The position numbers and the translations under genes are program-made. A DNA stretch of 17,970 bases, from IMG/VR virus record IMGVR_UViG_2648501130_000005, positions 1 to 17,970 of that record; one strand, given 5' to 3'. Source of the stretch: a virus (Duplodnaviria > Heunggongvirae > Uroviricota > Caudoviricetes). Shown here in pieces: positions 2,074 to 17,970 of the stretch. Below the pieces are notes generated by a model. The model was not told the origin of the DNA and did no database searches. It saw only the letters and a list, made by a program, of their open reading frames with translations. Within the stretch, counting starts at the first letter, position 1. Every line of letters starts with the position of its first letter.

Positions 2074-2095
2074 TCCTCACGCTCCATAAATGACA

Positions 2096-2115: not shown

Positions 2116-2133
2116 CACATAAAACATTTTGCA

Positions 2134-3060: not shown

Positions 3061-3209
3061 GGATCAGTAAGCGTAACTCTGGTAGGCTCACTCTGCTTTT
3101 GCGCTAAAGCAGTGGGCCGTGGTTCGCTTGTGACCAGTAAGCATGAGCGAATGGCTGGCAGGTGCTACCAACACCCACCAGCCGCCCATTTTCACAAATT
3201 AAAAGCCCT

Positions 3210-3404
3210 TCATTGCTGAAGGCGTCTGTAACAGCCGAACTGGTAATCTGCCAGCCCCGCCATAACCAACTGGGTCAGTATTAACTGACAGCGTTCGCGT
3301 GAAAGGTATGTGTTTTGTGCAATCTCCCCGACTGTTGCCGGTTCGATGCTTAATTCATTAAAAACAACTTTCGCCGTTTCTGTCATATCTTGCTGTTTTA
3401 GCAT
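3210..3404 (-). CDS. Small putative winged-helix DNA-binding protein (64 aa), function unknown
   Basis: 64-codon ORF with AAGGT 11 nt upstream of the ATG; the central segment ATVGEIAQNTYLSRERCQLILTQLVMAGL looks like a helix-turn-helix. Divergent from the KAP NTPase gene. Start could instead be the internal Met at 3386. Confidence 0.45.
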   Translation of the reverse strand: MLKQQDMTETAKVVFNELSIEPATVGEIAQNTYLSRERCQLILTQLVMAGLADYQFGCYRRLQQ

Positions 3405-3527
3405 GTCTTTTTACCTTCATGGTTAACATGACATACCAATAACTCTTGTCTAAAAAGCCAGCAAGATAAAAAATCAGTATTCACTACCACCAGCGTGTTT
3501 ACCGTACTGCACCAGGTTTACAGGTAC

Positions 3528-3553
3528 AAAAAAACCCGCTCGACAGCGGGTTT
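3528..3553 (-). terminator. Intrinsic terminator on minus strand (8-bp perfect stem, 5-nt loop, U-run)
   Basis: Plus strand reads AAAAAAA-CCCGCT-cgaca-GCGGGTTT, so the minus-strand RNA has the stem followed by a run of U. No annotated minus-strand gene lies immediately upstream. Confidence 0.5.
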
Positions 3554-3676
3554 AAGCTGTGTGGCGAAGTAACCACTCTTAACAGATTACAAGAATTTTT
3601 GCGGACCGCGTTAATGATTTTTAATCCCAAAGTCGTATTATTCGTTTTTTACTGTAGGAGTTAATAGGTTTATATT

Positions 3677-5008
3677 ATGTTAGATACACTATCTTTCACT
3701 GAACGTGACGAGTTCCAACGAAGAAACATCGCTGAAAATATCATCAAGTTGCTAAAACCAGAGGCAGACATTTCACCACTGGTAATAGACGGCGCATGGG
3801 GAACAGGGAAAACAGAATTTAGTATCAAACTGAAAAATCTCATTATTGAGCAAGAAACTGAATCTAAAGTTGTTTATATTGATGCCTTTAAAGGGGATCA
3901 TGCAGAATCTCCATTACTTCTCATAACCTCTGCAATTGCCAGCATTTTGCCTGAGGAAGAAAAACAACACTTCATTAAGAGATCTCTTCCTGCAATTCGC
4001 TTTGGTTTAAAAACGGTACTAAAAGCTGGTGCAGGTTGGTTTTTACGACAGGAGGCTAGTGAAGTTGCCGAAGAATTCCAAGATGCGATGAAGAAAGCAA
4101 GCAATGCAGCAATAGATGGGACTATTGAAAATTTGCTTGAAGACCATATGGACTCAGAGAAAAACATAAATTCACTTAAATCCTGCATCGAAAGCATATC
4201 AAAAAATCAAAAAATCGTAATTATAATTGATGAATTAGACCGATGTAAGCCGAGTTTTTCAACAAATGTCATTGAAACAATAAAACACATTTTTGACATC
4301 AATAATGTCTTTTTTATTTTAGTTACAAACACAGAACAATTAAAAGCATCTATAAATCATATTTATGGTTATAGCATTAACTCACAAAAGTATCTTGACA
4401 AGTTTATAAAATATACCATCACGCTTCCAGATACATGTTTGATAAATGGTCACAACGTATGTAAAGCCTCTGTTATATATTGGGATTACCTTGTAGAAAA
4501 AACAAGGTTATTGAATAAAATCAATAGATTATCAGGTTACTTTATCCGTGATTTAATTCAACGAACCAACTTATCATTACGTGAAACACAAACATTTTCA
4601 CGCAATCTTAACATTTTCCAACTGTTAAACGACGATGAGAACAAAAGCAGTGATCCTTTAATAAATATGATCTTTGTCGTAGCTGCCTTCATACATTGCT
4701 TTGGTAACAAGGAAAAACTAAAACAAGAAATTACCGCTGAATCTATATCTTATTTAGCAGACCTGCTTAACATAAAAGAAATACCTTATTCTTATGAGAG
4801 AAGATCGCAAATCCCTGAAATATCGATTGTATTCTTCGGAATAATTAAAGACAGTATTACTCTTAATGAGCGATTTGCCCCTAAAAGTGATGAAGAACTT
4901 AAAAAATTCACAAATGTTTATACTGATTATGAACACATAAATTTTTGGAGTACTACACCCAGAGAGTTATTGATAAAATATATTAATCAAATGTCATTCA
5001 TCCAGTAA
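3677..5008 (+). CDS. KAP-family P-loop NTPase (443 aa)
   Basis: Walker A DGAWGTGKT and the KAP-typical Walker B region IVIIIDELDRCKP. Visibly AT-rich with long A/T runs compared with flanking genes. Ends at the hairpin at 5011-5035. Confidence 0.85.
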   Translation: MLDTLSFTERDEFQRRNIAENIIKLLKPEADISPLVIDGAWGTGKTEFSIKLKNLIIEQETESKVVYIDAFKGDHAESPLLLITSAIASILPEEEKQHFIKRSLPAIRFGLKTVLKAGAGWFLRQEASEVAEEFQDAMKKASNAAIDGTIENLLEDHMDSEKNINSLKSCIESISKNQKIVIIIDELDRCKPSFSTNVIETIKHIFDINNVFFILVTNTEQLKASINHIYGYSINSQKYLDKFIKYTITLPDTCLINGHNVCKASVIYWDYLVEKTRLLNKINRLSGYFIRDLIQRTNLSLRETQTFSRNLNIFQLLNDDENKSSDPLINMIFVVAAFIHCFGNKEKLKQEITAESISYLADLLNIKEIPYSYERRSQIPEISIVFFGIIKDSITLNERFAPKSDEELKKFTNVYTDYEHINFWSTTPRELLIKYINQMSFIQ

Positions 5009-5010
5009 AT

Positions 5011-5035
5011 AATACGCCCCATGCAGGGGCGTATT
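5011..5035. terminator. Bidirectional intrinsic terminator between convergent KAP NTPase and Q genes
   Basis: Perfect 10-bp inverted repeat AATACGCCCC / GGGGCGTATT with loop ATGCA, sitting exactly between the KAP stop (5008) and the Q stop (5037), with A/T-rich flanks on both sides. Confidence 0.6.
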
Positions 5036-5036
5036 A

Positions 5037-5402
5037 TTAAACGTCCAAATCTAATGTTAGATCTAGCATGGAAAGGCAGCCATCAATAAATCCTTCGGCT
5101 AGCTGTATTTCTATACGTATCAATTTCTCATCTTTTTTACGAGCCTTGGCGAGCTTTCTTTTAGAGATACCGTATAGGTAATGGGCAACAAGAAGCGAAT
5201 GTTCGTCCGGCCTTTTTTGCTTTAGATGAGCAAGACAACCTTCAATAATTAAGGCATCACTATCCGAACAAGCCAAGCGTTTCTTGCTTGTATAGGGAAG
5301 AAGTCCCTTAAACCCAGCGGCTATAGGTGAATAATCAACGCCTGAACTATCACTCGCCGCCCATGCCCCCCAACGCTCCAGAACCATCTGAATATCACGC
5401 AT
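5037..5402 (-). CDS. Antitermination protein Q (QuuD-like lambdoid late-gene antiterminator)
   Basis: N-terminus MRDIQMVLERWGAWAA... is the signature I recall for E. coli prophage Q/QuuD proteins. ATG at 5402 with GGTGGAGA upstream; the track's first residue is a TTG one codon earlier. Confidence 0.8.
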   Translation of the reverse strand: MRDIQMVLERWGAWAASDSSGVDYSPIAAGFKGLLPYTSKKRLACSDSDALIIEGCLAHLKQKRPDEHSLLVAHYLYGISKRKLAKARKKDEKLIRIEIQLAEGFIDGCLSMLDLTLDLDV

Positions 5403-5419
5403 CAACTTTCTCCACCAAA

Positions 5420-6415
5420 TCAGGCTAGCACACCAATTGCCAACACACGGTCGATAAAACGAAATATCAGCTCCAGCTGGGAGCCATACTTCTCTTCAAA
5501 TGCCACGGTATCCGCATGCAGCTCGTCGTGATGCTTTCTGCACAAAGGCAACACAAAGAGGTCATGCGCTTTTGTACTCATTCCCCCCTGACCGTGGCCT
5601 ATCAGGTGGTGGGGATCATCAGCAGGCTTTCCACAACATGCACACGGCTGTGTCTTAACCCAGCGCGTGTACTTTTCATTAACCCAGCGGCGACGTTTGG
5701 GGCGTAACATAAAAGACTCCGGCGACTCCGGTTCCACTTTCAGCGCCAGCACCTTTTTCGCTTTATCCTGCATGATGCTGGTGGCTGGAACCGAAGGCAC
5801 AAGGTCACTTTCCCGGGTGACAGACGGCACAACAGGCTTCGGTAATCTCAGTGCCTTACGGGCTGCGCTTTCCGGTAAGGCATCCGCCAGATCATTACGA
5901 ACCAGCCACCAGCACAGTTCCGGCATTGTCACAACGTGACTATCATCAAAACCGAGATCCCGACGCACAACAGACAACACCCAGCGGGCACAGTTATCCG
6001 TTGCCATTGATTCCAGCCGTTCCGTGAACTGATCGCGCAGTTGGTTATCGCAGTGCCAGCACAGACGGATTGCGCCAGGCGCGTGTCGCATTGTGGTCAT
6101 GTTCTCGCTGTGCCAGTTGGAATGAGGCCACTGGCAGCCTTTTTCACGAAGTAACCAGCTTTCAAGACATTCCACGCCACCAGCACGACGGATCACTGCC
6201 TCATTGCGGAACACGGCCCGAACGGCAGGATCATCCGCCAGCGGTTGTGATGCCGCCGGAACGGCACCACTGGCGAAAGATGAATAACGTTCCGGCTCAG
6301 GCTCCAGCAGTACACGCCCCTGCATAAACAGGGGCATCAACTCTGAACCTGGCCTGAACAATACGATCCCCATACGCGGGGCAATTTCAGGGGTCAGTAG
6401 TGCTCTCACGGTCAC
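5420..6415 (-). CDS. DUF968-like nin-region protein with C-terminal HNH-like Cys/His motif
   Basis: C-terminal CACCGKPADDPHHLIGHGQGG...LCRKHHDELH; placed between KilA-N and Q as in lambdoid nin regions. Start uncertain: GTG at 6415 or 6409, or ATG at 6373; none has a clean SD. Confidence 0.6.
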   Translation of the reverse strand: MTVRALLTPEIAPRMGIVLFRPGSELMPLFMQGRVLLEPEPERYSSFASGAVPAASQPLADDPAVRAVFRNEAVIRRAGGVECLESWLLREKGCQWPHSNWHSENMTTMRHAPGAIRLCWHCDNQLRDQFTERLESMATDNCARWVLSVVRRDLGFDDSHVVTMPELCWWLVRNDLADALPESAARKALRLPKPVVPSVTRESDLVPSVPATSIMQDKAKKVLALKVEPESPESFMLRPKRRRWVNEKYTRWVKTQPCACCGKPADDPHHLIGHGQGGMSTKAHDLFVLPLCRKHHDELHADTVAFEEKYGSQLELIFRFIDRVLAIGVLA

Positions 6416-6416
6416 C

Positions 6417-7226
6417 TCAATGAACGGTATCGAGCAGCTTTAACAGCTCAGGGAATCGGGATTCGAAGAAATGCGGCTGCGTCTCGCGCGGATTTGCAGG
6501 ACTGGTGATGTTCTTGCCGAACATGCAGCCTTTCGCCGTCAGCGACCAGAATTTTTTGATGTTGTTAATCGCTGTACGGCTGTATCGTTCGCGCTGTTCG
6601 ACGATCCCCAGCTTCGCCATCTGGTGATATGCCTGATTAGCCGTAAGGCGGATACCATACTGTTTCAGCAGTGCACTCAGCGACAGTGTCGGGCGACTTG
6701 AGCCATCAGGCGCGTCAGCAGGAGCATCAATGGCATAGCGCGGTGCCAGATTCGGTAAGCCAACAGCCTCCTGGAGTTTCTGACAGGCCCCAAGCACTGA
6801 AGAGTTAGACAGGTTTAACTCCCTGCGCATAAAGTCCAGCAGAATCACGCCAGCCTGCATCTTGTCAGCAGCCTGCCCGGATAATTTTTCCGGTGCGCTG
6901 GTTACCATATCGAAAGTACGGATCACCTTCAGATGGAATGACGGGCTGATCCACATTGCATAGGCATACACCAGTTCTTTGCAGACATACGTCCCCTGGT
7001 TATTTCCGCCATTAATGACGCTAACTGGTTGATTTTGTTCCAGAGGCGGAATTCCACCCTCGGTGAAAAGTTGTTCAATCAATTCACAGGTTTGCTTATT
7101 GGAGAGCCAGTATTTCGGGCGGTTTTTTTGTTCTCCCCCGGCTGCCCTGTGCAGATCGTTCAGGCTGTAACGCCCATAAGCATCACGACGAACTTCAATA
7201 CCATCAATGACCATCAGATTATTCAT
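6417..7226 (-). CDS. KilA-N domain protein
   Basis: N-terminal MVIDGIEVRRDAYGRYSLNDLHRAAGG...YVCKELVYAYAMWISPSFHLKVIR is KilA-N-like. ATG at 7226 with AGGAGA 9 nt upstream; the track's GTG at 7259 was rejected. Confidence 0.7.
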   Translation of the reverse strand: MNNLMVIDGIEVRRDAYGRYSLNDLHRAAGGEQKNRPKYWLSNKQTCELIEQLFTEGGIPPLEQNQPVSVINGGNNQGTYVCKELVYAYAMWISPSFHLKVIRTFDMVTSAPEKLSGQAADKMQAGVILLDFMRRELNLSNSSVLGACQKLQEAVGLPNLAPRYAIDAPADAPDGSSRPTLSLSALLKQYGIRLTANQAYHQMAKLGIVEQRERYSRTAINNIKKFWSLTAKGCMFGKNITSPANPRETQPHFFESRFPELLKLLDTVH

Positions 7227-7245
7227 ACTTCGTTTCTCCTCTTGA

Positions 7246-7635
7246 TCAGGCGGCTGCACCCGCCGTTTTCTCGTACTTACTGATAGTGATCTCGACCTTC
7301 CCTTCCGGGATAACCGGTCCCCACTCCACCAGCATTCTTTTCACCTGGCTGTCGTCTTCCCACACACCCGCGTGGGTCAGGGCGTCAAACAGCGCCTTGT
7401 TATAGTTGTCCAGATCGCGGATCCGGTTATCCGGAGGAAACAACACGATCTCCACTGAAGCAGGTGCCGACGTTGGTTTCGGCAGACGACGTAACTGCTC
7501 AACTATTGCTGTGCACGCCGCACTTTGGAATTTTCGCCCCGCCGCGCTTATCAGGCTCTTACCAGCAAATGCCCCTTTGTTGGGGTGTCGCCAGTAGGTG
7601 TTCACGCTGGGTGGAAAAGGCAGAATCAGCTTCAT
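7246..7635 (-). CDS. rusA: Holliday junction resolvase RusA
   Basis: LPFPPSVNTYWRH ... RDLDNYNKALFDALTHAGVWEDDSQV matches the RusA family signature. Start ATG overlaps the upstream stop (ATGA). Confidence 0.85.
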   Translation of the reverse strand: MKLILPFPPSVNTYWRHPNKGAFAGKSLISAAGRKFQSAACTAIVEQLRRLPKPTSAPASVEIVLFPPDNRIRDLDNYNKALFDALTHAGVWEDDSQVKRMLVEWGPVIPEGKVEITISKYEKTAGAAA

Positions 7636-7958
7636 ACTTTCAGCCCCCTCTCATGTAACCAGTGGGCTGCACGCAGCCTTGCGTTTTCCTCACCGGCAAG
7701 CAGTGAGCGGATAATCCCGACCGCCTCGCTGTCGTCGTCCTTCACCGCGGTATGAAGCGTGATCCCCCGGGCCACACCACGCTTTATCGTGATGACGCCT
7801 TTTTTCTCCAGTGCGCGAAGATGCTCCACCGCTGCATTCACCGAACGGTATCCCAGCATGGTTGCCACCTCCTGATTGGTTGGCGGGAAGCCGCGTTCTT
7901 TCTGATAAGAAATCAGCATATCCAGCACCTGCTGCTGGCATTGAGTTAACGTCGTCAT
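7632..7958 (-). CDS. LexA N-terminal DNA-binding-domain-like protein (no peptidase domain)
   Basis: LTQCQQQVLDMLISYQKERGFPPTNQEVATMLGYRSVNAAVEHLRALEKKGVITIKRGVARGITL aligns closely with the LexA N-terminal winged helix as I recall it (…RSPNAAEEHLKALARKGVIEI…). Only 108 aa, so no S24 cleavage domain. ATGA overlaps at both ends. Confidence 0.75.
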   Translation of the reverse strand: MTTLTQCQQQVLDMLISYQKERGFPPTNQEVATMLGYRSVNAAVEHLRALEKKGVITIKRGVARGITLHTAVKDDDSEAVGIIRSLLAGEENARLRAAHWLHERGLKV

Positions 7959-8608
7959 GCCGCCATCTCCCTGACCAGTTTTTCTGCCTGCTGGCGAATC
8001 TGCGCCAGAAAGGCCTCACCACATGCCTCAAGTTCATCGCGCCCGATGTAGCTGATTGCCGGTCCCTTCCAGGTCTTGTCGAAAACAGCAATAGCACCAG
8101 CGAAGAAAGCGCCTGTCGGCACCTGCTTCTCATCCTTCGGGATAAACCAGGCAGGCAGTTCAAAACCAATACGCCCGCGAATAAAAGCAATATGATCTAC
8201 ATCTTCCGGCCACCACACTTCGCTGGTGGCAGCTTTGATCAGGAAAACATAGCGCCCGCCTTTATCACGCATGGCACTGGCATGCTTCATGATGTAACGC
8301 ATGCCGGTGATGTATTGCCCCTCATGCTGACTGGCGCGGCTGTATGGGGGATTACCAAAGGCAGCACCTTTAAGCTCCGCAAGGCGTTCTGACCAGTCAT
8401 GCGCCAGCGCGTTGTCTTCCGCCGTGTAATACGCAGCACATTTGGCGTTATCACCGTCAGTGAACAGATCCAGAACAAACGGGCCAAACAGGGTGTTAAT
8501 TCCCCAGAAAATGTTGTCCGGCGTGCGCCACTGATCGCCCACTTCCTTCAGTTCATGGGCTGGTTTGTTCCGCAGTTCCACCAGCGCCTGGCAATATTTA
8601 TTACTCAT
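7955..8608 (-). CDS. Phage N6-adenine DNA methyltransferase (Dam-type)
   Basis: GNPPYS (NPPY catalytic motif). ATG at 8608 with GTGGGGG upstream, overlapping the upstream TAA (TAATG). The track's GTG extension to 8641 was rejected. Confidence 0.75.
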   Translation of the reverse strand: MSNKYCQALVELRNKPAHELKEVGDQWRTPDNIFWGINTLFGPFVLDLFTDGDNAKCAAYYTAEDNALAHDWSERLAELKGAAFGNPPYSRASQHEGQYITGMRYIMKHASAMRDKGGRYVFLIKAATSEVWWPEDVDHIAFIRGRIGFELPAWFIPKDEKQVPTGAFFAGAIAVFDKTWKGPAISYIGRDELEACGEAFLAQIRQQAEKLVREMAA

Positions 8609-9096
8609 TAAGCCCCCACGTAATTCCCTGAGAGATACCACTCTTCACCTGATGCAGCCCGCTTACTGCTTTTCCGTAAACACCGTTCACGACGCGCCAA
8701 AAAATTGTTTCGTTCTGGCAGGGAGTGGCTTTCACGGAATGCCGCCATCCACACCGTTGCAGCACGACGGTATAAGCCCCTGGACTCCAGTTCTTCCGCC
8801 TGGCGGGTCAGGCACAAAATCACCCGCGGGTCGTTAGTGCCGACATAGAAATTGCGCACAGGTCTGGTTTCACGAACTGGTTGTGGTTCCGGATCCTGCG
8901 CTCTCTCAGTCAGGCGCGGGAAATGTCTGTGTGTATCTCCTTCACAACGGTGAGCCACACGCCCACTCTGACGTAACTTGCTTGCTGACTGCAGAACGCG
9001 CTGCCGTGAGTAACCTGCAAAAGCATCCGCAATGTCTCCGGAAGTACAGCCCGGATGGGCTTCAATGAATTTCTGAACGTCATTCAAAAGACTCAT
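8608..9096 (-). CDS. Putative transcriptional regulator with PerC-like C-terminal region
   Basis: AEELESRGLYRRAATVWMAAF resembles the PerC/Pch core motif (LESAGFWRRAAARW type). ATG at 9096 with GGGGGTGA upstream, 2 nt after the replication gene stop. Confidence 0.55.
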   Translation of the reverse strand: MSLLNDVQKFIEAHPGCTSGDIADAFAGYSRQRVLQSASKLRQSGRVAHRCEGDTHRHFPRLTERAQDPEPQPVRETRPVRNFYVGTNDPRVILCLTRQAEELESRGLYRRAATVWMAAFRESHSLPERNNFLARRERCLRKSSKRAASGEEWYLSGNYVGA

Positions 9097-9098
9097 GC

Positions 9099-9869
9099 TC
9101 ACCCCCTGAATCCTGCCGGGATCTGGCTGTAGTCCACATTGTCGTAACTGGCTTTGAAGTACGGGTCTTCGCGTTTTTCTGTGTACGTGCTGACGGACGG
9201 CGATAAGCGCAGGGAAAGCTCATCCCATTTTTCCCGCAGCTTCGACGGGCTGAGCACGTTACGGCACCAGAACGGATCGCGGCTGACGCGGCTGTACATC
9301 TCGCAGATTTGTTTGTGAGTACGACCATCCTGCACACACATCAGGCGAATTTCGTTTGCCCAGGCTGTCCAGTTCGGTTCTTTGGGACGAACCACCTCGC
9401 CGTCACATTCGGCAGCCTGCTCGTACAGGGCGATGATTTTTTTCCAGAGCCACTGTGCGCAGGTCAAATCATCCTGCGTCCCCCACTGGCGCTTTTTAGG
9501 GCTGAATACAACCGCATCAGGATGGCGAGTTAAAAAATCCTGTTCATCCGTCTGCGTGTCCGGTTGCGAAGCGTCCGGACGAGAAGGTTTTTTATCTGAC
9601 GGATCATGTTTTGATTTTACTGACGGATCCCCGCCAGATTCTGACGGGTGAAAACCCGCTTTTTTGCCAGATTTCGACGCATCAAATTTTGACGGGTCAG
9701 ATTTTGATGCGTCAGATTTTGACGGGTCAGAATCTGACAGTTGAGAAAATGCCGCTGCCTGAAGCTTCGCAACGTTAAGCTGATAAACATTCGACGCATT
9801 GCGGTTACCCACGGTTAGCCTCATCGTTCTGTGGTTTCTGTTAATCGATTTATCCATTAGATTTTTCAT
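9099..9869 (-). CDS. Replication initiation protein (lambda O-like role) with internal iteron-encoded peptide repeats
   Basis: Sits directly downstream of cro. The central SDSDPSKSDASKSDPSKFDASKSG region is encoded by tandem DNA repeats. Start uncertain: ATG at 9869, 9857 or 9824; the track's first codon at 9926 is GTG and lies deep inside cro. Confidence 0.6.
   Translation of the reverse strand: MKNLMDKSINRNHRTMRLTVGNRNASNVYQLNVAKLQAAAFSQLSDSDPSKSDASKSDPSKFDASKSGKKAGFHPSESGGDPSVKSKHDPSDKKPSRPDASQPDTQTDEQDFLTRHPDAVVFSPKKRQWGTQDDLTCAQWLWKKIIALYEQAAECDGEVVRPKEPNWTAWANEIRLMCVQDGRTHKQICEMYSRVSRDPFWCRNVLSPSKLREKWDELSLRLSPSVSTYTEKREDPYFKASYDNVDYSQIPAGFRG
9590..9740. repeat. Iteron array (putative origin of replication) inside the replication initiator gene
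   Basis: At least seven tandem ~15-17 bp copies of a (C)AGATTTTGACGGGTCA-like unit, e.g. attttgacgggtcag / attttgatgcgtcag / attttgacgggtcag. Analogous to the lambda ori iterons inside gene O. Confidence 0.6.
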
Positions 9870-10050
9870 AAAGCTCAGGTTTAAATGGCAACCGTCCGCA
9901 AGTTCTATATGCAGCTTCTGCTGCACGTCCTTTTGGAATTAACTGGCCCGGACGGTTTCGCCACTGATAAACGGCTTCAGTTGTTATGCCGAAAAAAGCA
10001 GCAACTTTCTCAATACTGCCGAAGTAGCTTTCGATATCGTCAGTTGTCAT
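9850..10050 (-). CDS. Cro-like transcriptional regulator
   Basis: 66 aa, divergent from the repressor gene; KVAAFFGITTEAVYQWR is a Cro/YdaS-type helix-turn-helix. Confidence 0.7.
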   Translation of the reverse strand: MTTDDIESYFGSIEKVAAFFGITTEAVYQWRNRPGQLIPKGRAAEAAYRTCGRLPFKPELYEKSNG

Positions 10051-10147
10051 ACGCCCTCCAAACTAAGTTTTATTAGATGCTAATTACAAATCTATCTTTG
10101 GTCAATAAAAACTAAGATTACTTAGCAATTAAAGAAATGGTGCTCCT
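10051..10147. promoter_or_regulatory. Divergent promoter/operator region between cro-like and cI-like genes
   Basis: 97-bp AT-rich intergenic region with two 14-bp palindromes: CTAAGattaCTTAG (10112-10125, perfect) and CTAAGttttATTAG (10063-10076, one mismatch). Minus strand carries TTGACC and a possible -10. Confidence 0.55.
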
Positions 10148-10774
10148 ATGGAAACGGTTGGTCAGCGTATAAAAGCTCTGAGAAGAGTTACCAGAACGTC
10201 CCAGAAAGAATTGGGTAAATTTTGTGGAGTAAGCGACGTTGCTGTGGGGTACTGGGAGAAAGACATCAATACCCCTGGTGGGGAGGCACTTTCGAAATTA
10301 GCGAAGTTCTTCAATACGTCAATAGATTACATTCTTTATGGTGCTGAGTTTGAAGGCAAACTCGTCACAAACATGCGCAGAGTTCCTGTAATATCGTGGG
10401 TTCAGGCTGGGCAGTTTACTGAGTGCAGGGCAGCAGAAGTGTTTAGTGAAGTGGACAAGTGGGTAGATACATCATTAAAGGTTGGTGATAACTCATTTGC
10501 ATTAGAGGTTAAAGGTGACTCCATGACTAACCCTAATGGCCTCCCAACAATACCAGAAGGCGCAACAGTGATTGTAGATCCAGATGCAGAACCTCGTCAT
10601 GGAAAAATAGTCATCGCTCGACTTGATGGAACAAACGAAGCTACAGTAAAAAAATTAGTCATCGATGGCCCTCAAAAGTTTTTAGTACCATTAAATCCTC
10701 GGTATCCCAACATCCCTATCAATGGTAATTGCCTTATCATTGGTGTAGTCAAAGGAGTTCAATACGAACTCTAA
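10148..10774 (+). CDS. CI-like prophage repressor (HTH plus S24 LexA-type autopeptidase domain)
   Basis: N-terminal XRE-type HTH (QKELGKFCGVSDVAVGYWE); C-terminal GDSM and a downstream Lys (VKKLV) typical of S24 self-cleaving repressors. SD-like sequence before the ATG. Confidence 0.85.
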   Translation: METVGQRIKALRRVTRTSQKELGKFCGVSDVAVGYWEKDINTPGGEALSKLAKFFNTSIDYILYGAEFEGKLVTNMRRVPVISWVQAGQFTECRAAEVFSEVDKWVDTSLKVGDNSFALEVKGDSMTNPNGLPTIPEGATVIVDPDAEPRHGKIVIARLDGTNEATVKKLVIDGPQKFLVPLNPRYPNIPINGNCLIIGVVKGVQYEL

Positions 10775-10927
10775 GGCCTCTCTTCTCTAACTAAGGCACC
10801 GAACTAAGAAAAGTTTGGTGTTTTCTCTTGCCATGACAACTAAGTTAAGTTAGATTTTATATCAAAGATAACGAACAGGCAGGACGCCCACGAAGTAGCC
10901 GCCTGGGGCATATGAAGTCCAGGATGA

Positions 10928-10952
10928 TTCGTTAGCAACAAAAAAGCGCCCT
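10928..10952 (-). terminator. Intrinsic terminator on minus strand downstream of the 173-aa gene
   Basis: On the minus-strand RNA: 7-bp stem AGCGUCC / GGGCGCU (one G-U pair), loop UGUA, then UUUUUUGUU. The G-U pair forms only on the minus-strand transcript. Confidence 0.5.
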
Positions 10953-11004
10953 ACAGGACGCTTAGCTCTTTAACAATCTGGGTATCATCCAACCAATGCA
11001 AGAT

Positions 11005-11526
11005 TTAAGGAATCCAAGGCGAATTCAGATCTCGCCCCAACTCACGTAATGATCTTGGTCGTTCGTACATCGGATTTTTTTCCATAAGAAATTTATTTTC
11101 ACAGTGAAGGCAACGGCTTGTAAGAAAATGAGAAGTTTTACCTACTGGAAGCGGATGAAGTATCGATTTTATATTTTTGGAATAACAAAGTGGGCACAGA
11201 TGCACAGTTATTTCTTTTCCACTCACAATTTCATTTTTAGAGTAAACAAAAGCACCAGAGTCAAGCTGATCAAGGACATATCCTTCTACCTTGGCACAAA
11301 AATCTTCAAACTCTGCAATTTTTGCTTTGAGATGCATCACCTCTTCATCACGAAGGCGGATCGCATCGCCAAGAGAGAAGCATTCTGCCTGAAGCGTGAT
11401 TAGTTTGTTCTGGAGTTCAATGGTTGCAGCTTTAACTTCTGCATCCGTTTTCGCGTCATTAATAACCTTAGCAAGACCGGCAGTCTCCTTTATAGCGGCC
11501 ATAGCCGCAGACAGTTCAGCTATCAC
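11005..11526 (-). CDS. Hypothetical coiled-coil / zinc-ribbon protein (moron convergent with cI)
   Basis: 173-codon ORF; N-terminal half is Ala/Lys/Glu-rich helical, C-terminal part has CPLC ... CLHC. C-terminal half is visibly AT-rich. Start is GTG at 11526 or ATG at 11502; neither has a strong SD. Confidence 0.6.
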   Translation of the reverse strand: MIAELSAAMAAIKETAGLAKVINDAKTDAEVKAATIELQNKLITLQAECFSLGDAIRLRDEEVMHLKAKIAEFEDFCAKVEGYVLDQLDSGAFVYSKNEIVSGKEITVHLCPLCYSKNIKSILHPLPVGKTSHFLTSRCLHCENKFLMEKNPMYERPRSLRELGRDLNSPWIP

Positions 11527-11542
11527 GTTGAATACTCAGCTA

Positions 11543-11586
11543 GTTGTTGGGGATATCCAGATTAACCAAATCCTTGTTGTTGGGGA
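11543..11586. repeat. Two exact 11-bp direct repeats GTTGTTGGGGA, 33 bp apart, just upstream of the 173-aa gene
   Basis: Seen directly at 11543-11553 and 11576-11586; function unknown. Confidence 0.5.
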
Positions 11587-11848
11587 ATAACTAGGTCCAC
11601 CTCGCCTGATGTGGCTAAAAGCAGGCACATAACAGCTAAGTATTTTCAACCAGAGAGAATCCTTAGCGTTGTGGTGAATGCGGCTCAGCGCACGCGGGTT
11701 AAGGTTGAGGCTGACAGTCGACCTTCTGTGGATACCCACCCGCCTGGTGTGCAACCTTCGCCAGGCACCGGGAGGCACCCGGCACCACAACTTTATGCTG
11801 TGTGTAGTCCTCGCGGTACCAGTTTGTACACTTGCTTCCGGCTGGTAC

Positions 11849-11947
11849 CGCTCTTTTTACAAAACAGAGAAGAACATCACCGGACGACGGGCTCATAACC
11901 CAATCCATCCGGGCGGCTGCCACCGCAGGTGTTCTTCTCTGTTTTGT
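11849..11947 (+). promoter_or_regulatory. boxA-like motif followed by an 18-bp perfect inverted repeat enclosing 53 nt (nut-like site or structured leader)
   Basis: CGCTCTTTTTAC (11849-11860) resembles boxA. Arms ACAAAACAGAGAAGAACA (11859-11876) and TGTTCTTCTCTGTTTTGT (11930-11947) are exact reverse complements. Lies 49 nt upstream of the yfdP-like ATG. Confidence 0.45.
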
Positions 11948-11995
11948 GGAGAAACCAACCGACCTTGCAGGGTCGATATGATTAGGAGCAGAAAA

Positions 11996-12358
11996 ATGGC
12001 TAGCGAACGCAGTACTGATGTGCAGGCATTTATTGGGGAGCTGGACGGCGGCGTATTTGAAACCAAAATCGGCGCAGTTCTCAGTGAAGTCGCTTCCGGT
12101 GTGATGAACACGAAAACCAAAGGTAAGGTCTCACTCAACCTGGAAATCGAACCATTTGATGAGAACCGTGTGAAAATCAAACACAAACTCTCATATGTTC
12201 GCCCGACTAACCGCGGGAAAATTTCCGAAGAAGACACCACCGAAACGCCGATGTATGTCAATCGCGGTGGTCGCCTGACTATTCTGCAGGAAGACCAGGG
12301 ACAATTACTGACTCTTGCCGGTGAACCTGACGGAAAACTCCGCGCAGCAGGTCATTAA
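11996..12358 (+). CDS. yfdP: YfdP-like early-left protein (120 aa)
   Basis: ATG at 11996 with AGGAG 7 nt upstream; the track ORF from 11678 is an unsupported upstream extension. Length and position match the yfdP-yfdQ-yfdR order I recall from CPS-53. Confidence 0.55.
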   Translation: MASERSTDVQAFIGELDGGVFETKIGAVLSEVASGVMNTKTKGKVSLNLEIEPFDENRVKIKHKLSYVRPTNRGKISEEDTTETPMYVNRGGRLTILQEDQGQLLTLAGEPDGKLRAAGH

Positions 12359-12423
12359 TATCGTTCTTAATTAACCGATTATTTATCTCATCACTGAATA
12401 TCTTTATATAGTGAGGACTTATT

Positions 12424-13248
12424 ATGTCTCAGAACTTAGACGCAACCGCAATTAATCAAATCCATGCCCTTATTTCTGCTCAGGGTGTTAATGAAATTAT
12501 CAGTAAGATTGGTGCCGATGCTGTGGCATTGCCTGAGAATTTCCGCATTCATGATCTGGAAAAATTTAATTTAAATCGCTTCCGTTTCCGTGGTGCGCTT
12601 TCCACTGCCAGCATCGATGACTTTACCCGTTACTCTAAAGATCTTGCAGATGAAGGCACCCGCTGCTTTATCGATGCCGATAATATGCGAGCCGTCAGTG
12701 TGCTTAACCTGGGTACTATTGATGAACCAGGTCACGCAGATAACACCGCCACACTCAAACTGAAAAAGACAGCACCGTTCTCTGCTCTGTTGTCTATTAA
12801 CGGCGAGCGTAACTCCCAGAAGTCACTAGCAGAATGGATTGAAGACTGGGCAGACTATCTTGTGGGCTTTGATGCTAATGGTGACGCTATTCAGGCAACA
12901 AAAGCGGCTGCGGCTGTCCGTAAAATCACGATTGAAGCAAACCAGACCGCTGATTTTGAAGATAATGACTTCAGCGGCAAACGCTCCCTGATGGAGTCTG
13001 TCGAAGCGAAGACCAAAGATATTATGCCTGTGGCATTTGAATTTAAATGCGTTCCGTTTGAAGGCCTGAAAGAACGTCCGTTTAAATTACGCCTCAGCAT
13101 TATCACTGGCGATCGTCCTGTACTGGTTCTGCGCATTATTCAGCTGGAAGCAGTGCAGGAAGAAATGGCTAACGAATTTCGTGATCTGCTTGTTGAGAAA
13201 TTCAAGGACAGCAAAGTAGAAACCTTTATTGGTACTTTCACCGCCTGA
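12424..13248 (+). CDS. yfdQ: YfdQ-like protein (DUF2303 family, 274 aa)
   Basis: GAGGA 6 nt upstream of the ATG. Length and N-terminus [14 protein letters not shown]... match my recollection of K-12 YfdQ. Confidence 0.7.
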
Positions 13249-13260
13249 TTTCATTACTGC

Positions 13261-13282
13261 AAATGCCCCTGCGGGGGCATTT
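13261..13282 (+). terminator. Hairpin downstream of yfdQ-like gene (possible partial terminator or attenuator)
   Basis: AAATGCCCC tgcg GGGGCATTT: perfect 9-bp stem, but only a short T-run follows. Confidence 0.4.
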
Positions 13283-13375
13283 ATGGAAACGTAATTGACT
13301 CAATAATCGCCGGATGGTGAGGGCTTCCTTTTACCAGAATTCAGCGCGGTGCAGCGCATATACGTGGAGAACAAA

Positions 13376-13912
13376 ATGTCATTTATTAAAACTTTTTCCG
13401 GGAAGCATTTTTATTATGACAGGATAAATAAAGACGACATCGTTATTAACGATATCGCGGTTTCTCTTTCAAATATCTGTCGCTTTGCAGGGCATCTTTC
13501 ACATTTCTACAGCGTTGCCCAACATGCGGTGCTTTGCAGCCAACTGGTACCGCAGGAATTTGCTTTTGAAGCGTTAATGCATGATGCAACAGAAGCGTAT
13601 TGCCAGGACATCCCGGCGCCACTGAAACGCCTTCTTCCTGACTATAAACGGATGGAAGAAAAAATAGATGCAGTAATCCGTGAGAAATACGAGTTGCCCC
13701 CGGTTATGAGCACGCCCGTGAAATATGCCGATCTCATCATGCTGGCAACCGAACGCCGTGATCTCGGGCTTGATGATGGCTCTTTATGGCCTGTACTGGA
13801 AGGTATCCCGGCAACAGAGATGTTCAAAGTTATTCCACTGGCACCGGGCCATGCCTACGGGATGTTTATGGAACGCTTCAACGAGTTATCGGAATTACGC
13901 AAATGTGCATAA
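13376..13912 (+). CDS. yfdR: HD-domain phosphohydrolase (YfdR-like, 178 aa)
   Basis: H...HD motif (AQHAV ... LMHDATEAY). ATG at 13376 with GGAGA upstream; the track's GTG at 13349 was rejected. Its 3' end overlaps the next gene by 10 nt. Confidence 0.8.
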   Translation: MSFIKTFSGKHFYYDRINKDDIVINDIAVSLSNICRFAGHLSHFYSVAQHAVLCSQLVPQEFAFEALMHDATEAYCQDIPAPLKRLLPDYKRMEEKIDAVIREKYELPPVMSTPVKYADLIMLATERRDLGLDDGSLWPVLEGIPATEMFKVIPLAPGHAYGMFMERFNELSELRKCA

Positions 13913-14781
13913 CTCATGTAGTTAGTTTTTCTGGCGGGAGAACATCCGCATATCTTGTTCACCTGATGGAAGAACAAAGAAAGGCTGGCAATAACGTCTG
14001 CTACATCTTTATGGATACCGGTTGCGAACATCCGCTGACATACCGCTTTATCCGGGAGGTTGTGAAGTTCTGGGACATACCACTAACTGTGTTACAGGTC
14101 GATATAAATCCTGAGCTTGGGCAGCCAAATGGTTATACAGAATGGGAGCCAAAGGATATTCAGACACGAATGCCGGTGCTTAAACCGTTTATGGACATGG
14201 TTAAAAAGTACGGCACGCCATACATCGGCGGCGCGCTCTGTACTGATAGGCTAAAACTCATCCCTTTCACAAAATACTGCGATAACCATTTCGGGCGAGG
14301 TAATTACATCACATGGCTGGGTATTCGTGCAGACGAACCCCGTAGGCTGAAACCGAAATCGGGCGTCCGGTATCTTGCCGAGCTGTCAGATTTTGATAAG
14401 TCGGATGTTATCCGGTGGTGGCGAAAACAACCTTTTGATTTGCAAATCCCGGAGCATCTCGGGAACTGTGTTTTCTGCATCAAAAAGTCAACGCAAAAGC
14501 TGGGGCTTGCATGTAAAGACGAACCAGGTCTGATGCGAGTTTTTAATGAGCTGGTTACAGGCAAACACGTCAGGGATGGTCATCGCAGAACAGGTAAAGA
14601 CATTATGTACCGTGGTCACCTGACGCTTGACGGAATTGCCAGAATGTCTGCCAACAGCGACTACAGAAATTTGTATCAGGCGATGGTACAGGCCAGGCGA
14701 TTCGATACCGGCTCGTGTTCAGAGTCATGTGAAATCTGGGGTGATCAATTGGAATTGGAATTCAAAGAGGTAGGGGTATGA
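13903..14781 (+). CDS. PAPS-reductase-like PP-loop ATP pyrophosphatase family protein with C-terminal Cys cluster
   Basis: PP-loop VVSFSGGRTSAYL near the N-terminus; Cys pairs (CVFC, CSESC) near the C-terminus. ATG at 13903 overlaps the HD gene stop; the track's 13786 start is an upstream in-frame extension inside the HD gene. Confidence 0.8.
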   Translation: MCITHVVSFSGGRTSAYLVHLMEEQRKAGNNVCYIFMDTGCEHPLTYRFIREVVKFWDIPLTVLQVDINPELGQPNGYTEWEPKDIQTRMPVLKPFMDMVKKYGTPYIGGALCTDRLKLIPFTKYCDNHFGRGNYITWLGIRADEPRRLKPKSGVRYLAELSDFDKSDVIRWWRKQPFDLQIPEHLGNCVFCIKKSTQKLGLACKDEPGLMRVFNELVTGKHVRDGHRRTGKDIMYRGHLTLDGIARMSANSDYRNLYQAMVQARRFDTGSCSESCEIWGDQLELEFKEVGV

Positions 14782-15122
14782 CAACCGAAATTAACTACCA
14801 TGCACTGCTTGAGCGCGCACGGAATAAAGTGCAGAGCATTGAGTTCGCCTTAACACAGAGTGCATTCGCTGAGATTCGCGCTGAGCTTGAAAATGATTTA
14901 GAACTGGCACGGATTGCACTGGCATCTCTGGAAGTTGAGCCAGATGAACGCGCAGCCTATGAATTATTTATGGAAAAGCGTTTCGGTAAAACAGTCGATC
15001 GTCGGAGAGCAAAAAACGGCGATAACGAATACATGGCATGGGATATGACTCTCGGTTGGATCGTCTGGCAGCAACGAGCTGGTATCCATTTTTCAACAAT
15101 GTCACAGCAAGAGGTGAAATAA
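14778..15122 (+). CDS. Hypothetical early protein (114 aa)
   Basis: ATG overlaps the upstream TGA (ATGA) and its TAA overlaps the xis ATG (TAATG). GAGG/GGGG upstream. No recognisable motif. Confidence 0.6.
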   Translation: MTTEINYHALLERARNKVQSIEFALTQSAFAEIRAELENDLELARIALASLEVEPDERAAYELFMEKRFGKTVDRRRAKNGDNEYMAWDMTLGWIVWQQRAGIHFSTMSQQEVK

Positions 15123-15472
15123 TGGAGCCATACAGCCTCACACTCGATGAGGCCTGTCATTTTCTCAAGATATCCAGACCGACTGCCATTAACTGGATAC
15201 GCACAGGGCGTCTTCAGGCAACACGCAAAGATCCCACTAAGAATAAATCTCCTTACCTCACAACACGACAAGCCTGCATTGCGGCTCTTCAGTCTCCGCT
15301 GCATACTGTCCAGGTGAGCGCGGGTGATGGCATAACAGAGGAAAGAAAATGTCACTCTTCCGCAGAGGTGAAATATGGTACGCCAGTTTCACATTGCCGA
15401 ACGGTAAAAGATTTAAACAGTCTCTTGGAACAAAGGACAAAAGGCAGGCGACAGAACTCCATGACAAGCTAA
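15122..15472 (+). CDS. xis: Excisionase (Xis), 116 aa
   Basis: ATG at 15122 with GAGGTGA upstream. HTH-like [24 protein letters not shown]. Overlaps the int start as in lambda/P22 xis-int. The track's 15038 start is an unsupported extension. Confidence 0.7.
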
Positions 15473-16512
15473 AGGCTGAAGCATGGCGGGTCAGCAAACT
15501 TGGTGAAATACCTGATATAACGTTCGAGGAAGCGTGTGTCAGGTGGCTTGAAGAGAAAGCACATAAAAAATCACTGGACGATGACAAAAGCCGGATCGGA
15601 TTCTGGCTTCAACATTTCGCAGGAATGCAACTAAGAGACATTACTGAATCAAAAATTTATTCAGCAATGCAGAAAATGACGAACCGGCGTCATGAGGAAA
15701 ACTGGAAACTCAGGGCAGAAGCATGCAGAAAAAAAGGGAAACCTGTTCCAGAATACACGCCAAAACCAGCGTCCGTTGCAACGAAGGCTACGCATCTTTC
15801 ATTTATAAAGGCCCTACTAAGAGCCGCAGAGCGTGAATGGAAAATGCTGGATAAGGCACCAATTATTAAAGTGCCTCAACCAAAGAATAAACGGATCCGC
15901 TGGCTGGAGCCCCATGAAGCACAAAGGCTGATTGATGAATGTCCGGAGCCATTAAAGTCTGTTGTTGAATTTGCACTGGCAACAGGCTTAAGACGCTCGA
16001 ACATCATCAACCTTGAATGGCAACAAATAGATATGCAGCGCCGGGTGGCATGGATAAACCCAGAAGAGAGTAAATCAAACCGCGCAATCGGCGTTGCGCT
16101 GAATGATACTGCATGTCGCGTTTTGAAAAAACAAATCGGGAATCATCACCGTTGGGTATTTGTGTACAAGGAAAGCTGTACCAAACCAGACGGAACGAAA
16201 GCGCCAACAGTAAGGAAGATGCGGTATGACGCAAACACAGCCTGGAAAGCGGCGCTGAGACGGGCTGGTATTGATGATTTCAGATTTCACGACTTGAGAC
16301 ACACCTGGGCAAGTTGGCTGGTTCAAGCCGGAGTCCCGTTGTCAGTGTTACAGGAAATGGGAGGCTGGGAGTCTATCGAAATGGTTCGTCGATATGCTCA
16401 CCTTGCACCTAATCACCTTACCGAACACGCACGGCAAATAGACTCGATCCTGAACCCATCGGTCCCAAATTTGTCCCAGTCAAAAAATAAGGAAGGTACT
16501 AATGATGTGTAA
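15349..16512 (+). CDS. int: Tyrosine-recombinase phage integrase (P22-type, thrW-specific), 387 aa
   Basis: AGAGGAAAG upstream of the ATG. Catalytic HDLRHTW ... RYAHL motifs. Stops 14 nt before the tRNA-Thr 3' end. Confidence 0.9.
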
Positions 16513-16526
16513 CTTATTGATTTAAA

Positions 16527-16602
16527 TGGTGCCGATAATAGGAGTCGAACCTACGACCTTCGCATTACGAATGCGCTGCTCTACCAACTGAGCTATATCG
16601 GC
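16527..16602 (-). tRNA. thrW: tRNA-Thr (anticodon CGU)
   Basis: Reverse complement reads GCCGATATAGCTCAGTTGGTAGAGCAGCGCATTCGTAATGCGAAGGTCGTAGGTTCGACTCCTATTATCGGCACCA: 7-bp acceptor stem, GTTCGA T-loop, anticodon loop with CGT, encoded CCA. Confidence 0.9.
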
Positions 16603-16716
16603 CCTGAAAGGACATGTTCACGAACGTGAATCACGGTGGACAAGGTTAAAACTAACCGGGCGATGCGTCAATGGCCTTGTGAATCAAATGGCTACTTTTG
16701 CATCACCCGGTTTTAT

Positions 16717-17970
16717 TTACGCACGAATGGTGTAATCACCAATACCGATCCACTTGTAAGTGGTCAGTGCTTCCAGCCCCATTGGGCCACGCGCGTGGAG
16801 TTTTTGTGTGCTTACCGCCACTTCCGCACCTAGTCCAAACTGGCCGCCGTCGGTAAAACGCGTAGAGGCGTTAACGTAAACAGCGGACGAATCCACTTCG
16901 TTAACAAAACGCTGGGCGTTGCGCATATCGCGGGTCAGGATCGCATCGGAGTGTTGTGTGCCGTGTTCACGAATATGGGCGATGGCATCGTCAAGATCAC
17001 TGACGATTTTGACGTTCAAATCTAATGACAGAAACTCATCGTCATACTCTTCCGCTTTAACAGCCACCACCTTCGCGGGGCCTGTCTGCAACTGCGCCAG
17101 CGCAGCTGCATCTGCGTGTAATGCCACGCCGCTTTCCTCCATTTGTTTGCTTAATGCGGGCAGGAAGCTATCGGCGATGTTTTTATTCACCAGCAACGTT
17201 TCTACCGTATTACATGTGCTCGGACGCTGAGTTTTCGCGTTGACGATCACTTTTAATGCTTCAGCAATCTCTACACTTTCATCAACATAAATATGGCATA
17301 CGCCTATACCACCTGTGATCACCGGGATCGTCGACTGTTCGCGGCACAGTTTATGCAAACCAGCGCCACCACGCGGGATCAGCATGTCGATGTATTTATC
17401 CATACGCAGCATTTCACTGACCAGCGCACGGTCAGGATTATCAATCGCCTGCACGGCACCCACCGGTAAGCCACAGGATTTCAGGGCGTCCTGAATCACC
17501 GCCACCGTTGCCGCGTTAGTGCGACAGGTTTCTTTACCGCCACGCAGAATCACTGCGTTACCGGTTTTCAGGCACAGCGAAGCGACATCAACCGTCACGT
17601 TCGGGCGCGCTTCATAAATCACGCCAATAACCCCCAGCGGTACGCGACGACGCTCAAGACGCAGGCCGCTGTCCAGTACGCTGCCATCGATTACCTGCCC
17701 CACCGGATCGGCGAGGTTACACACCTGGCGCACATCATCGGCAATGCCTTTCAGCCGTGCGGGCGTCAGTGCCAGACGGTCAAGCATCGCTTCGCCAAGG
17801 CCATTGGCACGCGCGTCAGCAACATCCTGGGCGTTAGCGTTGAGGATGATTTCGCTTTGTGCTTCCAGTTCATCGGCGATTTTTTCCAGCACGCGATTTT
17901 TTTCGCGGCTGGAGAGTTGCGCTAATTTATACGAGGCTTGCTTCGCGGCAATGCCCATTTGTTCCAGCAT
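16717..17970 (-). CDS. proA: Gamma-glutamyl phosphate reductase ProA (417 aa, host gene)
   Basis: Full-length ORF starting exactly at the window end; [40 protein letters not shown]... matches E. coli ProA as I recall it. Confidence 0.95.

Follow-up and report, generated by a model that had tools for sequence, protein, structure and literature searches.

A conserved three-way-junction RNA behind a small-RNA terminator in the early-left leaders of enterobacterial prophages

Background

Long, nearly perfect RNA duplexes in untranslated leaders are known from phage and bacterial operons, and RNase III leader hairpins have been described in the lambda N leader, in metY-nusA-infB (between tRNA-fMet2 and the mRNA) and at the early sites of T7. 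Phages also make stable RNAs that resemble tRNAs, such as the T4 species 1 and 2 RNAs at the end of the phage tRNA cluster, and an mRNA leader can itself imitate part of a tRNA, as does the thrS operator, an anticodon-arm mimic bound by threonyl-tRNA synthetase (ThrRS). Other leader RNAs act on transcription: boxA (consensus CGCUCUUA / UGCUCUUUAACAA) is the conserved single-stranded element of the lambda-type nut site and is followed within a few nucleotides (nt) by boxB, a hairpin of about 5 bp with a GNRA-like pentaloop, and the put RNA of HK022, which lies upstream of the terminators it suppresses, acts through the zinc-binding domain of the RNA polymerase beta' subunit. Here we describe an element in the leader upstream of yfdP in a 17,970-nt stretch of caudoviral DNA (IMG/VR record IMGVR_UViG_2648501130_000005, positions 1 to 17,970; referred to here as the window). 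The original prediction for this locus, made from the sequence, reported a boxA-like string followed by a long perfect inverted repeat, and proposed an antitermination site, a structured leader or a protein-binding site.

The two arms of the inverted repeat form the helix (P1) that closes a conserved three-way-junction RNA, encoded on the plus strand in the untranslated early-left leader, and we are highly confident of the anatomy of this RNA (P1 enclosing two arms, H1 and H2; Table 1). It shares with the RNase III leader sites a long, near-perfect duplex of about two turns in an untranslated leader, preceded by a small stable RNA with its terminator and followed by the first open reading frame (ORF) of a long operon. 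It differs from them in that its duplex closes a three-way junction, one arm of which is invariant in sequence, in that most members of the present family have a conserved central mismatch, and in that we infer the cleavage. Relatives of the element in late operons resemble the T4 species 1 and 2 RNAs, being tRNA-sized and located right after tRNA genes, with an acceptor-like stem, NCCA and a CAU loop; unlike those RNAs and other tRNA-like structures, the present element has no D arm or T-loop consensus and is missed by tRNA finders, and in the window copy the stem measures 20-24 bp and CCA is missing. As in the thrS operator, a leader hairpin reproduces a specific tRNA anticodon stem-loop (here 14/14 nt of the initiator), whereas ThrRS is the bound factor there, the downstream genes here are unrelated to translation, and two loop positions 3' of CAU are unconserved in the present family. 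With HK022 put and lambda nut the element has in common that it is a cis-encoded structured RNA near the early-left start, in a lambdoid phage lacking an N gene; it differs in having no similarity to putL, no boxB and no conserved boxA, and in standing after the leader terminator rather than before it. Finally, the STnc100/PasD prophage small RNAs (sRNAs) stand right beside the junction in one transcript (at its 3' end the STnc100 match consists of the 'boxA' string), and both modules are found in early-left and late-operon contexts; the junction nevertheless lies outside the Rfam model, and the survey of Pas RNAs treats the neighboring sRNA only (bioRxiv 10.64898/2026.05.13.724894), a term search of which turned up nothing on the junction element. 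The motif is widespread and unannotated, and is akin to two described kinds of RNA, leader processing hairpins and tRNA-like RNAs.

Results

A long inverted repeat closes a three-way junction

Re-reading of positions 11500-12300 of the window returned exactly the arms, coordinates and 53-nt interior of the original prediction. The left arm, ACAAAACAGAGAAGAACA, and the right arm, TGTTCTTCTCTGTTTTGT, are exact reverse complements over 18 bp, and 48 nt separate the end of the right arm (11947) from the yfdP ATG. In a repeat search of the window the complementarity runs on to 25 nt at 88%, and the repeat is present in one copy. The repeat is beyond chance expectation, because 18-mer arms are expected analytically 3.7e-5 times per window and no inverted repeats with 14-, 16- or 18-mer arms appeared in 20 shuffles of the window.

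The plus-strand RNA of positions 11840-11998 folds into a long helix closing two hairpins (-64.2 kcal/mol; z = -5.8 against dinucleotide shuffles), in agreement with the folding check suggested for this locus, and the complete 360-nt leader is also strongly structured (z = -6.3). P1 comprises 20 contiguous bp, or 24 bp when the U-tract of the upstream terminator pairs with a conserved GGAGA. We assessed this fold on an alignment of 27 diverse copies (referred to as A1), on which RNAalifold found the same three-way junction independently, with the outer helix extended into the U-tract. Within A1, 95.5% of cells pair in the stated structure, compared with 37-50% when the partners are slid, and compensatory double changes occur at 11/34 pairs, as against 1-4 in controls; the observed covariation score was reached by 0/500 shuffles. 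Six of the 20 stem pairs of P1 are compensatory (the pair 11867/11939, for example, is G-C in 17 sequences and C-G in 10), and the pairs that extend the helix into the U-tract (U11854-A11952, U11855.G11951 and U11856-A11950) are predicted in 26-27 of the 27 sequences. The base of H1 covaries as well (one pair is G-C in 19 sequences, A-U in 5 and G.U in 3, and CCAUGC/GCAUGG are swapped in the second set described below), as do the base pairs of H2, whose base is conserved (G-C 13, C-G 4, U.G 4, U-A 2). As a guard against circularity we also collected a second set of 71 distinct sequences with a pattern that fixed only parts of the two helix strands and left the interior free, and these have the same fold as A1.

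The perfection of the 18-bp arms, on which the original prediction drew, is an exception in this family, because helix position 11 is mismatched (C.U, C.C or A.C) in 87% of the 71 distinct relatives; a G-C pair at that position is confined to the E. coli lineage of this window. The 53-nt interior is the best-conserved part of the element. Directly after the helix follows the conserved GGAGAAAC (11948-11955), and a hairpin occupies the place of H3, between the junction and the ribosome-binding site, in 45/48 distinct relatives, with 17 different stem strands and a loop GGCA or UGCA in 30 of them. H2 varies from 13 to 38 nt among relatives, with lengths in all three classes modulo 3, so that no reading frame is conserved across the element.

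Selection acts on the plus-strand RNA rather than on duplex DNA, as two observations argue. A U.G wobble at 11877/11929 is present in 26/27 sequences of A1 and in 71/71 of the second set, and over the helix and H1 there are 116 G.U cells compared with 30 A.C cells (G.U pairs in the plus-strand RNA only, A.C on the other strand only). The U-tract:GGAGA extension uses U.G pairs also. Fold energy does not separate the strands (-68.8 kcal/mol for the minus-strand RNA versus -64.2 kcal/mol for the plus). The structured-leader reading in the original prediction is therefore the one that holds: compensatory changes preserve the arms in different genera and the transcript has a stable fold, whereas unconserved arms and no stable structure were the outcomes named there as refuting it.

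Loops of the GGCA/UGCA type recur at this locus: at the tip of H2 (often UUGCAG, which is self-complementary), in H3, and in an AGGCA-loop hairpin of the upstream sRNA. The window's H2 loop CUGCCA (11917-11922) is the exact complement of UGGCAG, the commonest H3 loop among relatives (the window's own H3 loop occupies 11966-11969). These loops may form an H2/H3 kissing interaction or share a protein site, although the H2-tip and H3 loops have no consistent covariation among relatives.

Arm H1 matches the initiator tRNA anticodon stem-loop

In the window, CGGGCTCATAACCC of H1 agrees at 14/14 nt with the E. coli initiator tRNA in its anticodon stem-loop; this includes CGGGCUCAUAACCC, that is, three G-C pairs and the loop CUCAUAA. 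The initiator tRNA sequence used for this comparison was verified against genomes, matching at 100% a gene annotated tRNA-Met in all 5426 E. coli genomes. On this likeness, H1 is a putative anticodon-arm mimic, presenting a CAU 'anticodon' on three G-C pairs. The upper core of the arm, GACGGGCUCAU..CCCAAUCCA, is near-invariant; in the second set, for which the core was left unconstrained in the search, UCAU is invariant and CCCAAUCC near-invariant. H1 is conserved above the flanking protein-coding DNA, and the most distant BLAST matches, from Klebsiella and Pantoea phages, cover 11879-11915 only. Pairing of the CUCAU loop with a start-codon AUGAG was considered and rejected, only the AUG being common to the different downstream genes.

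A short-stem version closes tRNA arrays in late operons

Lambdoid phages of Klebsiella, Raoultella and E. coli carry the same H1 in the late operon, in the interval from the Q antiterminator to the lysis genes. There the element closes tRNA arrays, separated from the last tRNA gene by a 6-nt spacer, and is about 71 nt long with an outer stem of 6 bp (GGCCUG/CAGGCC). Its junction spacing is that of the leader version (A, 0-1 nt, 1-2 nt), and the 6-bp outer stem and the 6-bp H2 stem together make 12 bp, as long as the acceptor/T stack in a tRNA. NCCA stands right after the stem in 67/69 distinct copies (GCCA in 56, ACCA in 11), and after NCCA the flanks diverge, with at least five distinct continuations. 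Leader and late versions occur together on one viral contig (L052). An acceptor stem with discriminator and CCA, present in these late relatives, is missing from the window copy, in which the 20-24 bp stem is followed by GGAGAAAC. By homology over the whole junction, the window element is a long-stem, CCA-less version of a D-arm-less tRNA-like RNA.

Standard annotation passes over the late version, which has no tRNA match in the Rfam E-value scan and is unannotated in RefSeq. ARAGORN returned thrW only in the window and, at five loci, flanking tRNAs only, these in late-version loci; neither version of the element was called. In Klebsiella phage 2 LV-2017 (L009, 2570-2650) and at many other late loci, the element is followed by about 50 nt that include GACAUUGCU, and then by a strong intrinsic terminator. 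GACAUUGCU also occurs in the seed region of RyhB (the Rfam RyhB match is weak, at 18.6 bits), and this 3' stretch may, by that resemblance, be a phage-encoded sRNA.

The boxA-like string belongs to an sRNA terminator

Immediately upstream of the junction, Rfam family RF02076 (STnc100) matches over the full length of its model with 49.1 bits (gathering score 47; E = 4e-08), a borderline score, and related copies in other phages fall mostly under the gathering score. The model stops at 11860, leaving the repeat (11859-11947) and the junction outside it, and its terminal hairpin and U-run align to 11813-11860. The Rfam check suggested with the original prediction accordingly gave a mixed answer, a match for the upstream segment (11638-11860) and no family for the repeat itself: gathering and E-value scans of the window and of the late version against Rfam 15 returned only STnc100, tRNA-Thr and noise.

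The stem of the terminator, GCGGTACCAG / CTGGTACCGC, is a perfect 10-bp inverted repeat, and the string taken for a boxA, CGCTCTTTTTAC at 11849-11860, consists of the last 3 bases of that stem, the U-tract and the first 2 bases of the repeat. In 72/87 distinct upstream segments from relatives, a U5-7 tract lies no more than 2 nt from the end of a GC-rich hairpin of 6 bp or more. The terminator stems themselves differ, several being unrelated in sequence, and GCUCUUU is not kept, with CCCUUUUU, CACUUUUUU and ACCUUUUU found in its place. Because hairpin and U-tract are kept and the string is not, the 'boxA' is an intrinsic-terminator signature and not a NusB/NusE site. No boxB-type hairpin follows it, the next structure being the 20-24 bp helix that closes the junction, and a Pfam scan of the 10 neighboring ORFs yielded no N-like protein, in line with the remark in the original prediction that no N-like ORF is evident nearby. 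The nut-like antitermination site proposed there is thus not retained. We also considered, and rejected, a separate promoter between the terminator and P1: no -35/-10 is conserved, and the terminator loop varies.

The body of the STnc100-like RNA (11638-11812) is mosaic, and its interior differs among relatives (also at 2840-3000 of the mEp460 locus L003, and at about 2380-2470 of loci L005, L006 and L008). It keeps a closing helix GUUGUGGUG...CACCACAAC, the linker UGCUGUGUGUAGUC and the AGGCA-loop hairpin, the stem of which covaries from CCGGG/CCCGG in the window to GGUGG/CCACC in Klebsiella-type copies. Exactly at 11813 there is a mosaic joint, where many E. coli phages change to another sequence. 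A direct repeat, CTAGTTGTTGGGGA / CTTGTTGTTGGGGA, with copies 33 nt apart (window 11537-11586), lies just upstream of the STnc100-like RNA, beside the start of a minus-strand ORF, and may be a regulator site or promoter element.

Distribution, downstream genes and annotation

Of 5426 complete E. coli genomes, 2811 gave a BLAST match to the segment, K-12 with its prophage e14 among them, at a median of 1 place per genome and always in the same prophage context. Matches outside these chromosomes include phages SfV, SfII, SfIV, mEp460 and cdtI, Stx2-converting phages, Salmonella ST64B, Citrobacter phiNP and Klebsiella phages, and when one genome per species was scanned with a sequence pattern, copies also turned up in Citrobacter, Enterobacter, Kosakonia, Leclercia, Mixta, Erwinia, Pantoea, Phytobacter, Raoultella and others. 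A contig labeled Chryseobacterium sp. 18061 (L019) carries an enterobacterial-type copy nearly identical to the Citrobacter and Mixta versions; this assembly is likely to be contaminated or mislabeled.

In early-left leaders across Enterobacterales the order is fixed: terminator, junction, H3, ribosome-binding site. At least four unrelated first genes follow the module, and in e14 xisE-intE comes directly after it; because the first genes downstream are unrelated, the module travels with the terminator and not with yfdP. A locus search with a YfdP alignment gave 80 loci with an identical protein in all of them, and so no added diversity.

In the K-12 prophage, the ORF called 'ymfH' (L004, 2373-2684) overlays the 3' part of the STnc100-like RNA, the terminator and the whole junction, and at a locus identical to the window RefSeq annotates a 'frameshifted hypothetical protein' over the element. 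The 'ymfH' of e14 is reported to trigger the retron-Sen2 toxin (preprint), and going by the sequence that underlies this ORF, the active agent could be the RNA. The genes intE, xisE and ymfH have been treated as one operon and are listed in the same co-regulated YmfT gene set (preprint), which is consistent with transcription through the junction element. Full-text literature searches, which included yfdP, ymfH and tRNA-like contexts, found no description of the core sequence or of the element in the papers that they covered. In mEp460, a C4 antisense RNA (83.6 bits) has IsrK (67 bits) as its direct neighbor on the minus strand (L003, 321-509), inside the coordinates of an annotated antirepressor-like gene (1-869); the pair resembles a P1/P7-type immunity module in a lambdoid phage.

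Genomic setting of the window copy

The window is 100% identical to E. coli chromosomes with a truncated lambdoid prophage at thrW, beside proA. The genes from yfdP to the integrase are its early-left operon. The Pfam scan of the 10 neighboring ORFs identified Cro, CI (S24), DUF2303, an HD-type nucleotidase, PAPS reductase, a helix-turn-helix (HTH) protein and the integrase, and a noncoding stretch of about 470 nt separates yfdP from a minus-strand 173-aa ORF (Table 1). This ORF lies antisense between the putative promoter pL and the STnc100-like sRNA; Pfam gives no credible match for it, it is missing at the corresponding place in mEp460, ST64B and phiNP, and it looks like a moron insertion.

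Six copies of the heptamer AACTAAG are present in the window, five of them in two clusters: one in the cro/cI intergenic region (10061, 10110) and one just past the cI stop codon (10789, 10802, 10838), where one copy overlaps a promoter-like site (10828-10856; TTGCCA-17-TAGATT). By their sequence and placement the clusters look like OR and OL/pL operators, and if the second is OL/pL, then pL would lie about 780 nt upstream of the STnc100-like RNA.

Table 1. Coordinates of the junction RNA and of surrounding features in the window
Feature	Position	Strand	Sequence, basis or remark
Cro-like gene	9850-10050	minus	RefSeq annotation of identical locus, Pfam
CI/LexA-type repressor (S24)	10148-10774	plus	RefSeq annotation of identical locus, Pfam
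173-aa ORF	11005-11526	minus	own terminator at 10963-10944
STnc100-like sRNA, body and terminator	11638-11860	plus	Rfam RF02076
Intrinsic terminator of STnc100-like sRNA	11813-11858	plus	GCGGTACCAG 11813-11822 / CTGGTACCGC 11842-11851, then TCTTTTT 11852-11858
P1, 5' strand	11854-11878	plus	left arm 11859-11876, two further pairs (U.G, C-G) and terminator U-tract
Arm H1	11880-11912	plus	CCGGACGACGGGCUCAUAACCCAAUCCAUCCGG, loop CUCAUAA 11892-11898
Arm H2	11913-11926	plus	GCGG-CUGCCA-CCGC
P1, 3' strand	11928-11952	plus	right arm 11930-11947 and GGAGA pairing with U-tract
Hairpin H3	11960-11975	plus	CGACCU-UGCA-GGGUCG, between junction and ribosome-binding site
Shine-Dalgarno sequence and yfdP	AGGAG 11984-11988; ATG 11996, to 12358	plus	first gene of early-left operon ending at xis/int
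yfdP, yfdQ (DUF2303), nucleotidase (HD-type), PAPS-reductase-like, HTH/xis-like, integrase	downstream of noncoding stretch, in that order	plus	RefSeq, Pfam

Discussion

A proposed processing module in the leader

We tentatively propose, at somewhat less than an even chance for the explanation as a whole, that the junction is an RNA processing ('punctuation') module. It would form only when transcription continues past the terminator of the STnc100-like sRNA. In the leader version, RNase III would cut the two-turn P1 duplex, which would uncouple the sRNA from the mRNA, reset the 5' end of the mRNA to a point just upstream of H3 and the ribosome-binding site, and release H1 and H2 as one compact RNA; from the tRNA-array version the same RNA would be released by RNase P together with 3' trimming. 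The freed RNA would then show its CAU anticodon-arm mimic to some host or phage factor. The size of P1 fits an RNase III substrate, its 20 contiguous pairs, plus 4 into the U-tract, comparing with the approximately 22 bp of double-stranded RNA that the enzyme takes (PMC6212723), and RNase III cuts in vivo are enriched in 5' untranslated regions and in intergenic regions inside transcripts (PMC6212723).

Several points weigh against this proposal. We infer the roles of RNase III and RNase P, and the promoter that feeds the leader is a prediction only. The model does not account for how RNA polymerase passes the leader terminator. Because RNase III has little sequence specificity, its action fails to explain either the conservation of the P1 strand sequences or the mismatch at position 11. 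Neither ARAGORN nor the Rfam tRNA model recognizes the leader or the late version as a tRNA. The two bases 3' of CAU are AA in 46/71 sequences of the second set, UC in 20 and UA in 5, and about 35% of the family thus has a pyrimidine at the equivalent of tRNA position 37, which is un-tRNA-like; because these bases vary, strict mimicry of the initiator anticodon loop is not required family-wide.

A stronger form of the proposal holds that the junction is the precursor of a free tRNA-sized RNA, made by RNase III in early-left transcripts and by RNase P and trimming in late ones, whose H1 would act in trans as a decoy or competitor for factors that read the initiator anticodon arm. The candidates would be a VapC-type anticodon nuclease or other tRNA-directed toxin, the 30S P site, methionyl-tRNA synthetase (MetRS) or a modification enzyme; we consider this form unlikely.

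Alternative explanations

A leader acting purely in cis, in which the helix and H3 tune the yfdP operon (through an RNase III site that adjusts translation or stability, the lambda N leader being an example, or through protection of a long untranslated leader from Rho) and no RNA product is made, is conceivable, and we rate its chances as rather low. The position of the element 48 nt before the first ATG, with H3 and GGAGAAAC conserved in between, the 24-bp duplex and the structure of the leader as a whole (z = -6.3) would all suit such a role. The module is, however, kept before unrelated first genes, and in e14 directly before xisE; the same junction, with a 6-bp stem and NCCA, lies inside tRNA arrays with no gene start to regulate; and neither the tuning of expression nor shielding from Rho would need a near-invariant H1 sequence. 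The terminator that heads the early-left operon is conserved, so that some way through it is needed, and a processive antitermination site, whether nut-like (boxA for NusB/NusE with an N-type hairpin) or put-like (an RNA that binds RNA polymerase), could provide one; CGCTCTTTTTACAA resembles the boxA consensus UGCUCUUUAACAA, the N gene is missing as in HK022, and the motif is also found in late-operon leaders. Yet GCUCUUU is unconserved and is half stem, half U-tract of the terminator, a 20-24 bp helix follows in place of boxB, and the junction is downstream of the leader terminator and so cannot act on it. HK022 putL aligned to 11854-11952 with a local score of 15, against 13.8 +/- 2.2 for shuffles, and the NCCA end and tRNA-array location of the relatives would go unexplained, which leaves antitermination with only a slight chance of being correct.

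Slightly less promising still is the idea that the element has no function and is left over, in mosaic phages, from a tRNA(CAU)-type gene or from a site of attachment or recombination derived from a tRNA. The match to a tRNA anticodon arm, the relatives in tRNA arrays and the mosaic joint at 11813 just upstream all point that way, but compensatory substitutions maintain three helices across many genera, the syntenic place behind the terminator is fixed, and H1 is conserved above the flanking coding DNA. Action at the level of DNA, as a palindromic protein site (a reading included in the original prediction), a cruciform or the ends of a small mobile element, is very improbable in spite of the perfect 18-bp arms in the window and the near-equal folding of the minus-strand RNA: the invariant U.G pair would be mismatched in DNA or on the other strand, as would the G.U cells that outnumber A.C cells by 116 to 30, most relatives have 1-2 mismatches in the arms, and the best-conserved part is the interior of an element found once per prophage in a fixed place. 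That single copy in the window and the median of one place per E. coli genome likewise led us to reject a dispersed DNA repeat of the miniature inverted-repeat transposable element (MITE) or repetitive extragenic palindromic (REP) type. We give equally little credence to a protein-coding function, be it as 'ymfH', as the 'frameshifted hypothetical protein' or as an amino-terminal extension of YfdP (ORF 11678-12358). Open frames do span the region, and several stay open across the junction in most relatives; against this, the lengths of H2 leave no conserved frame, substitutions compensate pairs rather than following codon patterns, and the intrinsic terminator falls inside the putative ORF.

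Implications

The motif is very common and lies outside Rfam 15, and genomes leave it unlabeled or cover it with doubtful protein calls. It links the structured early-left leaders of N-less prophages with an unannotated tRNA-like gene that ends late tRNA arrays. If the junction is a processing signal only, the finding would correct the annotation and would explain how one promoter serves both an sRNA gene and an mRNA. Should the RNA be excised and its mimic have a partner, it would represent a new class of phage tRNA mimic; and if the decoy form of the proposal were true, a phage counter-defense or translation-takeover RNA would be present in about half of complete E. coli genomes, hidden in K-12 under 'ymfH'.

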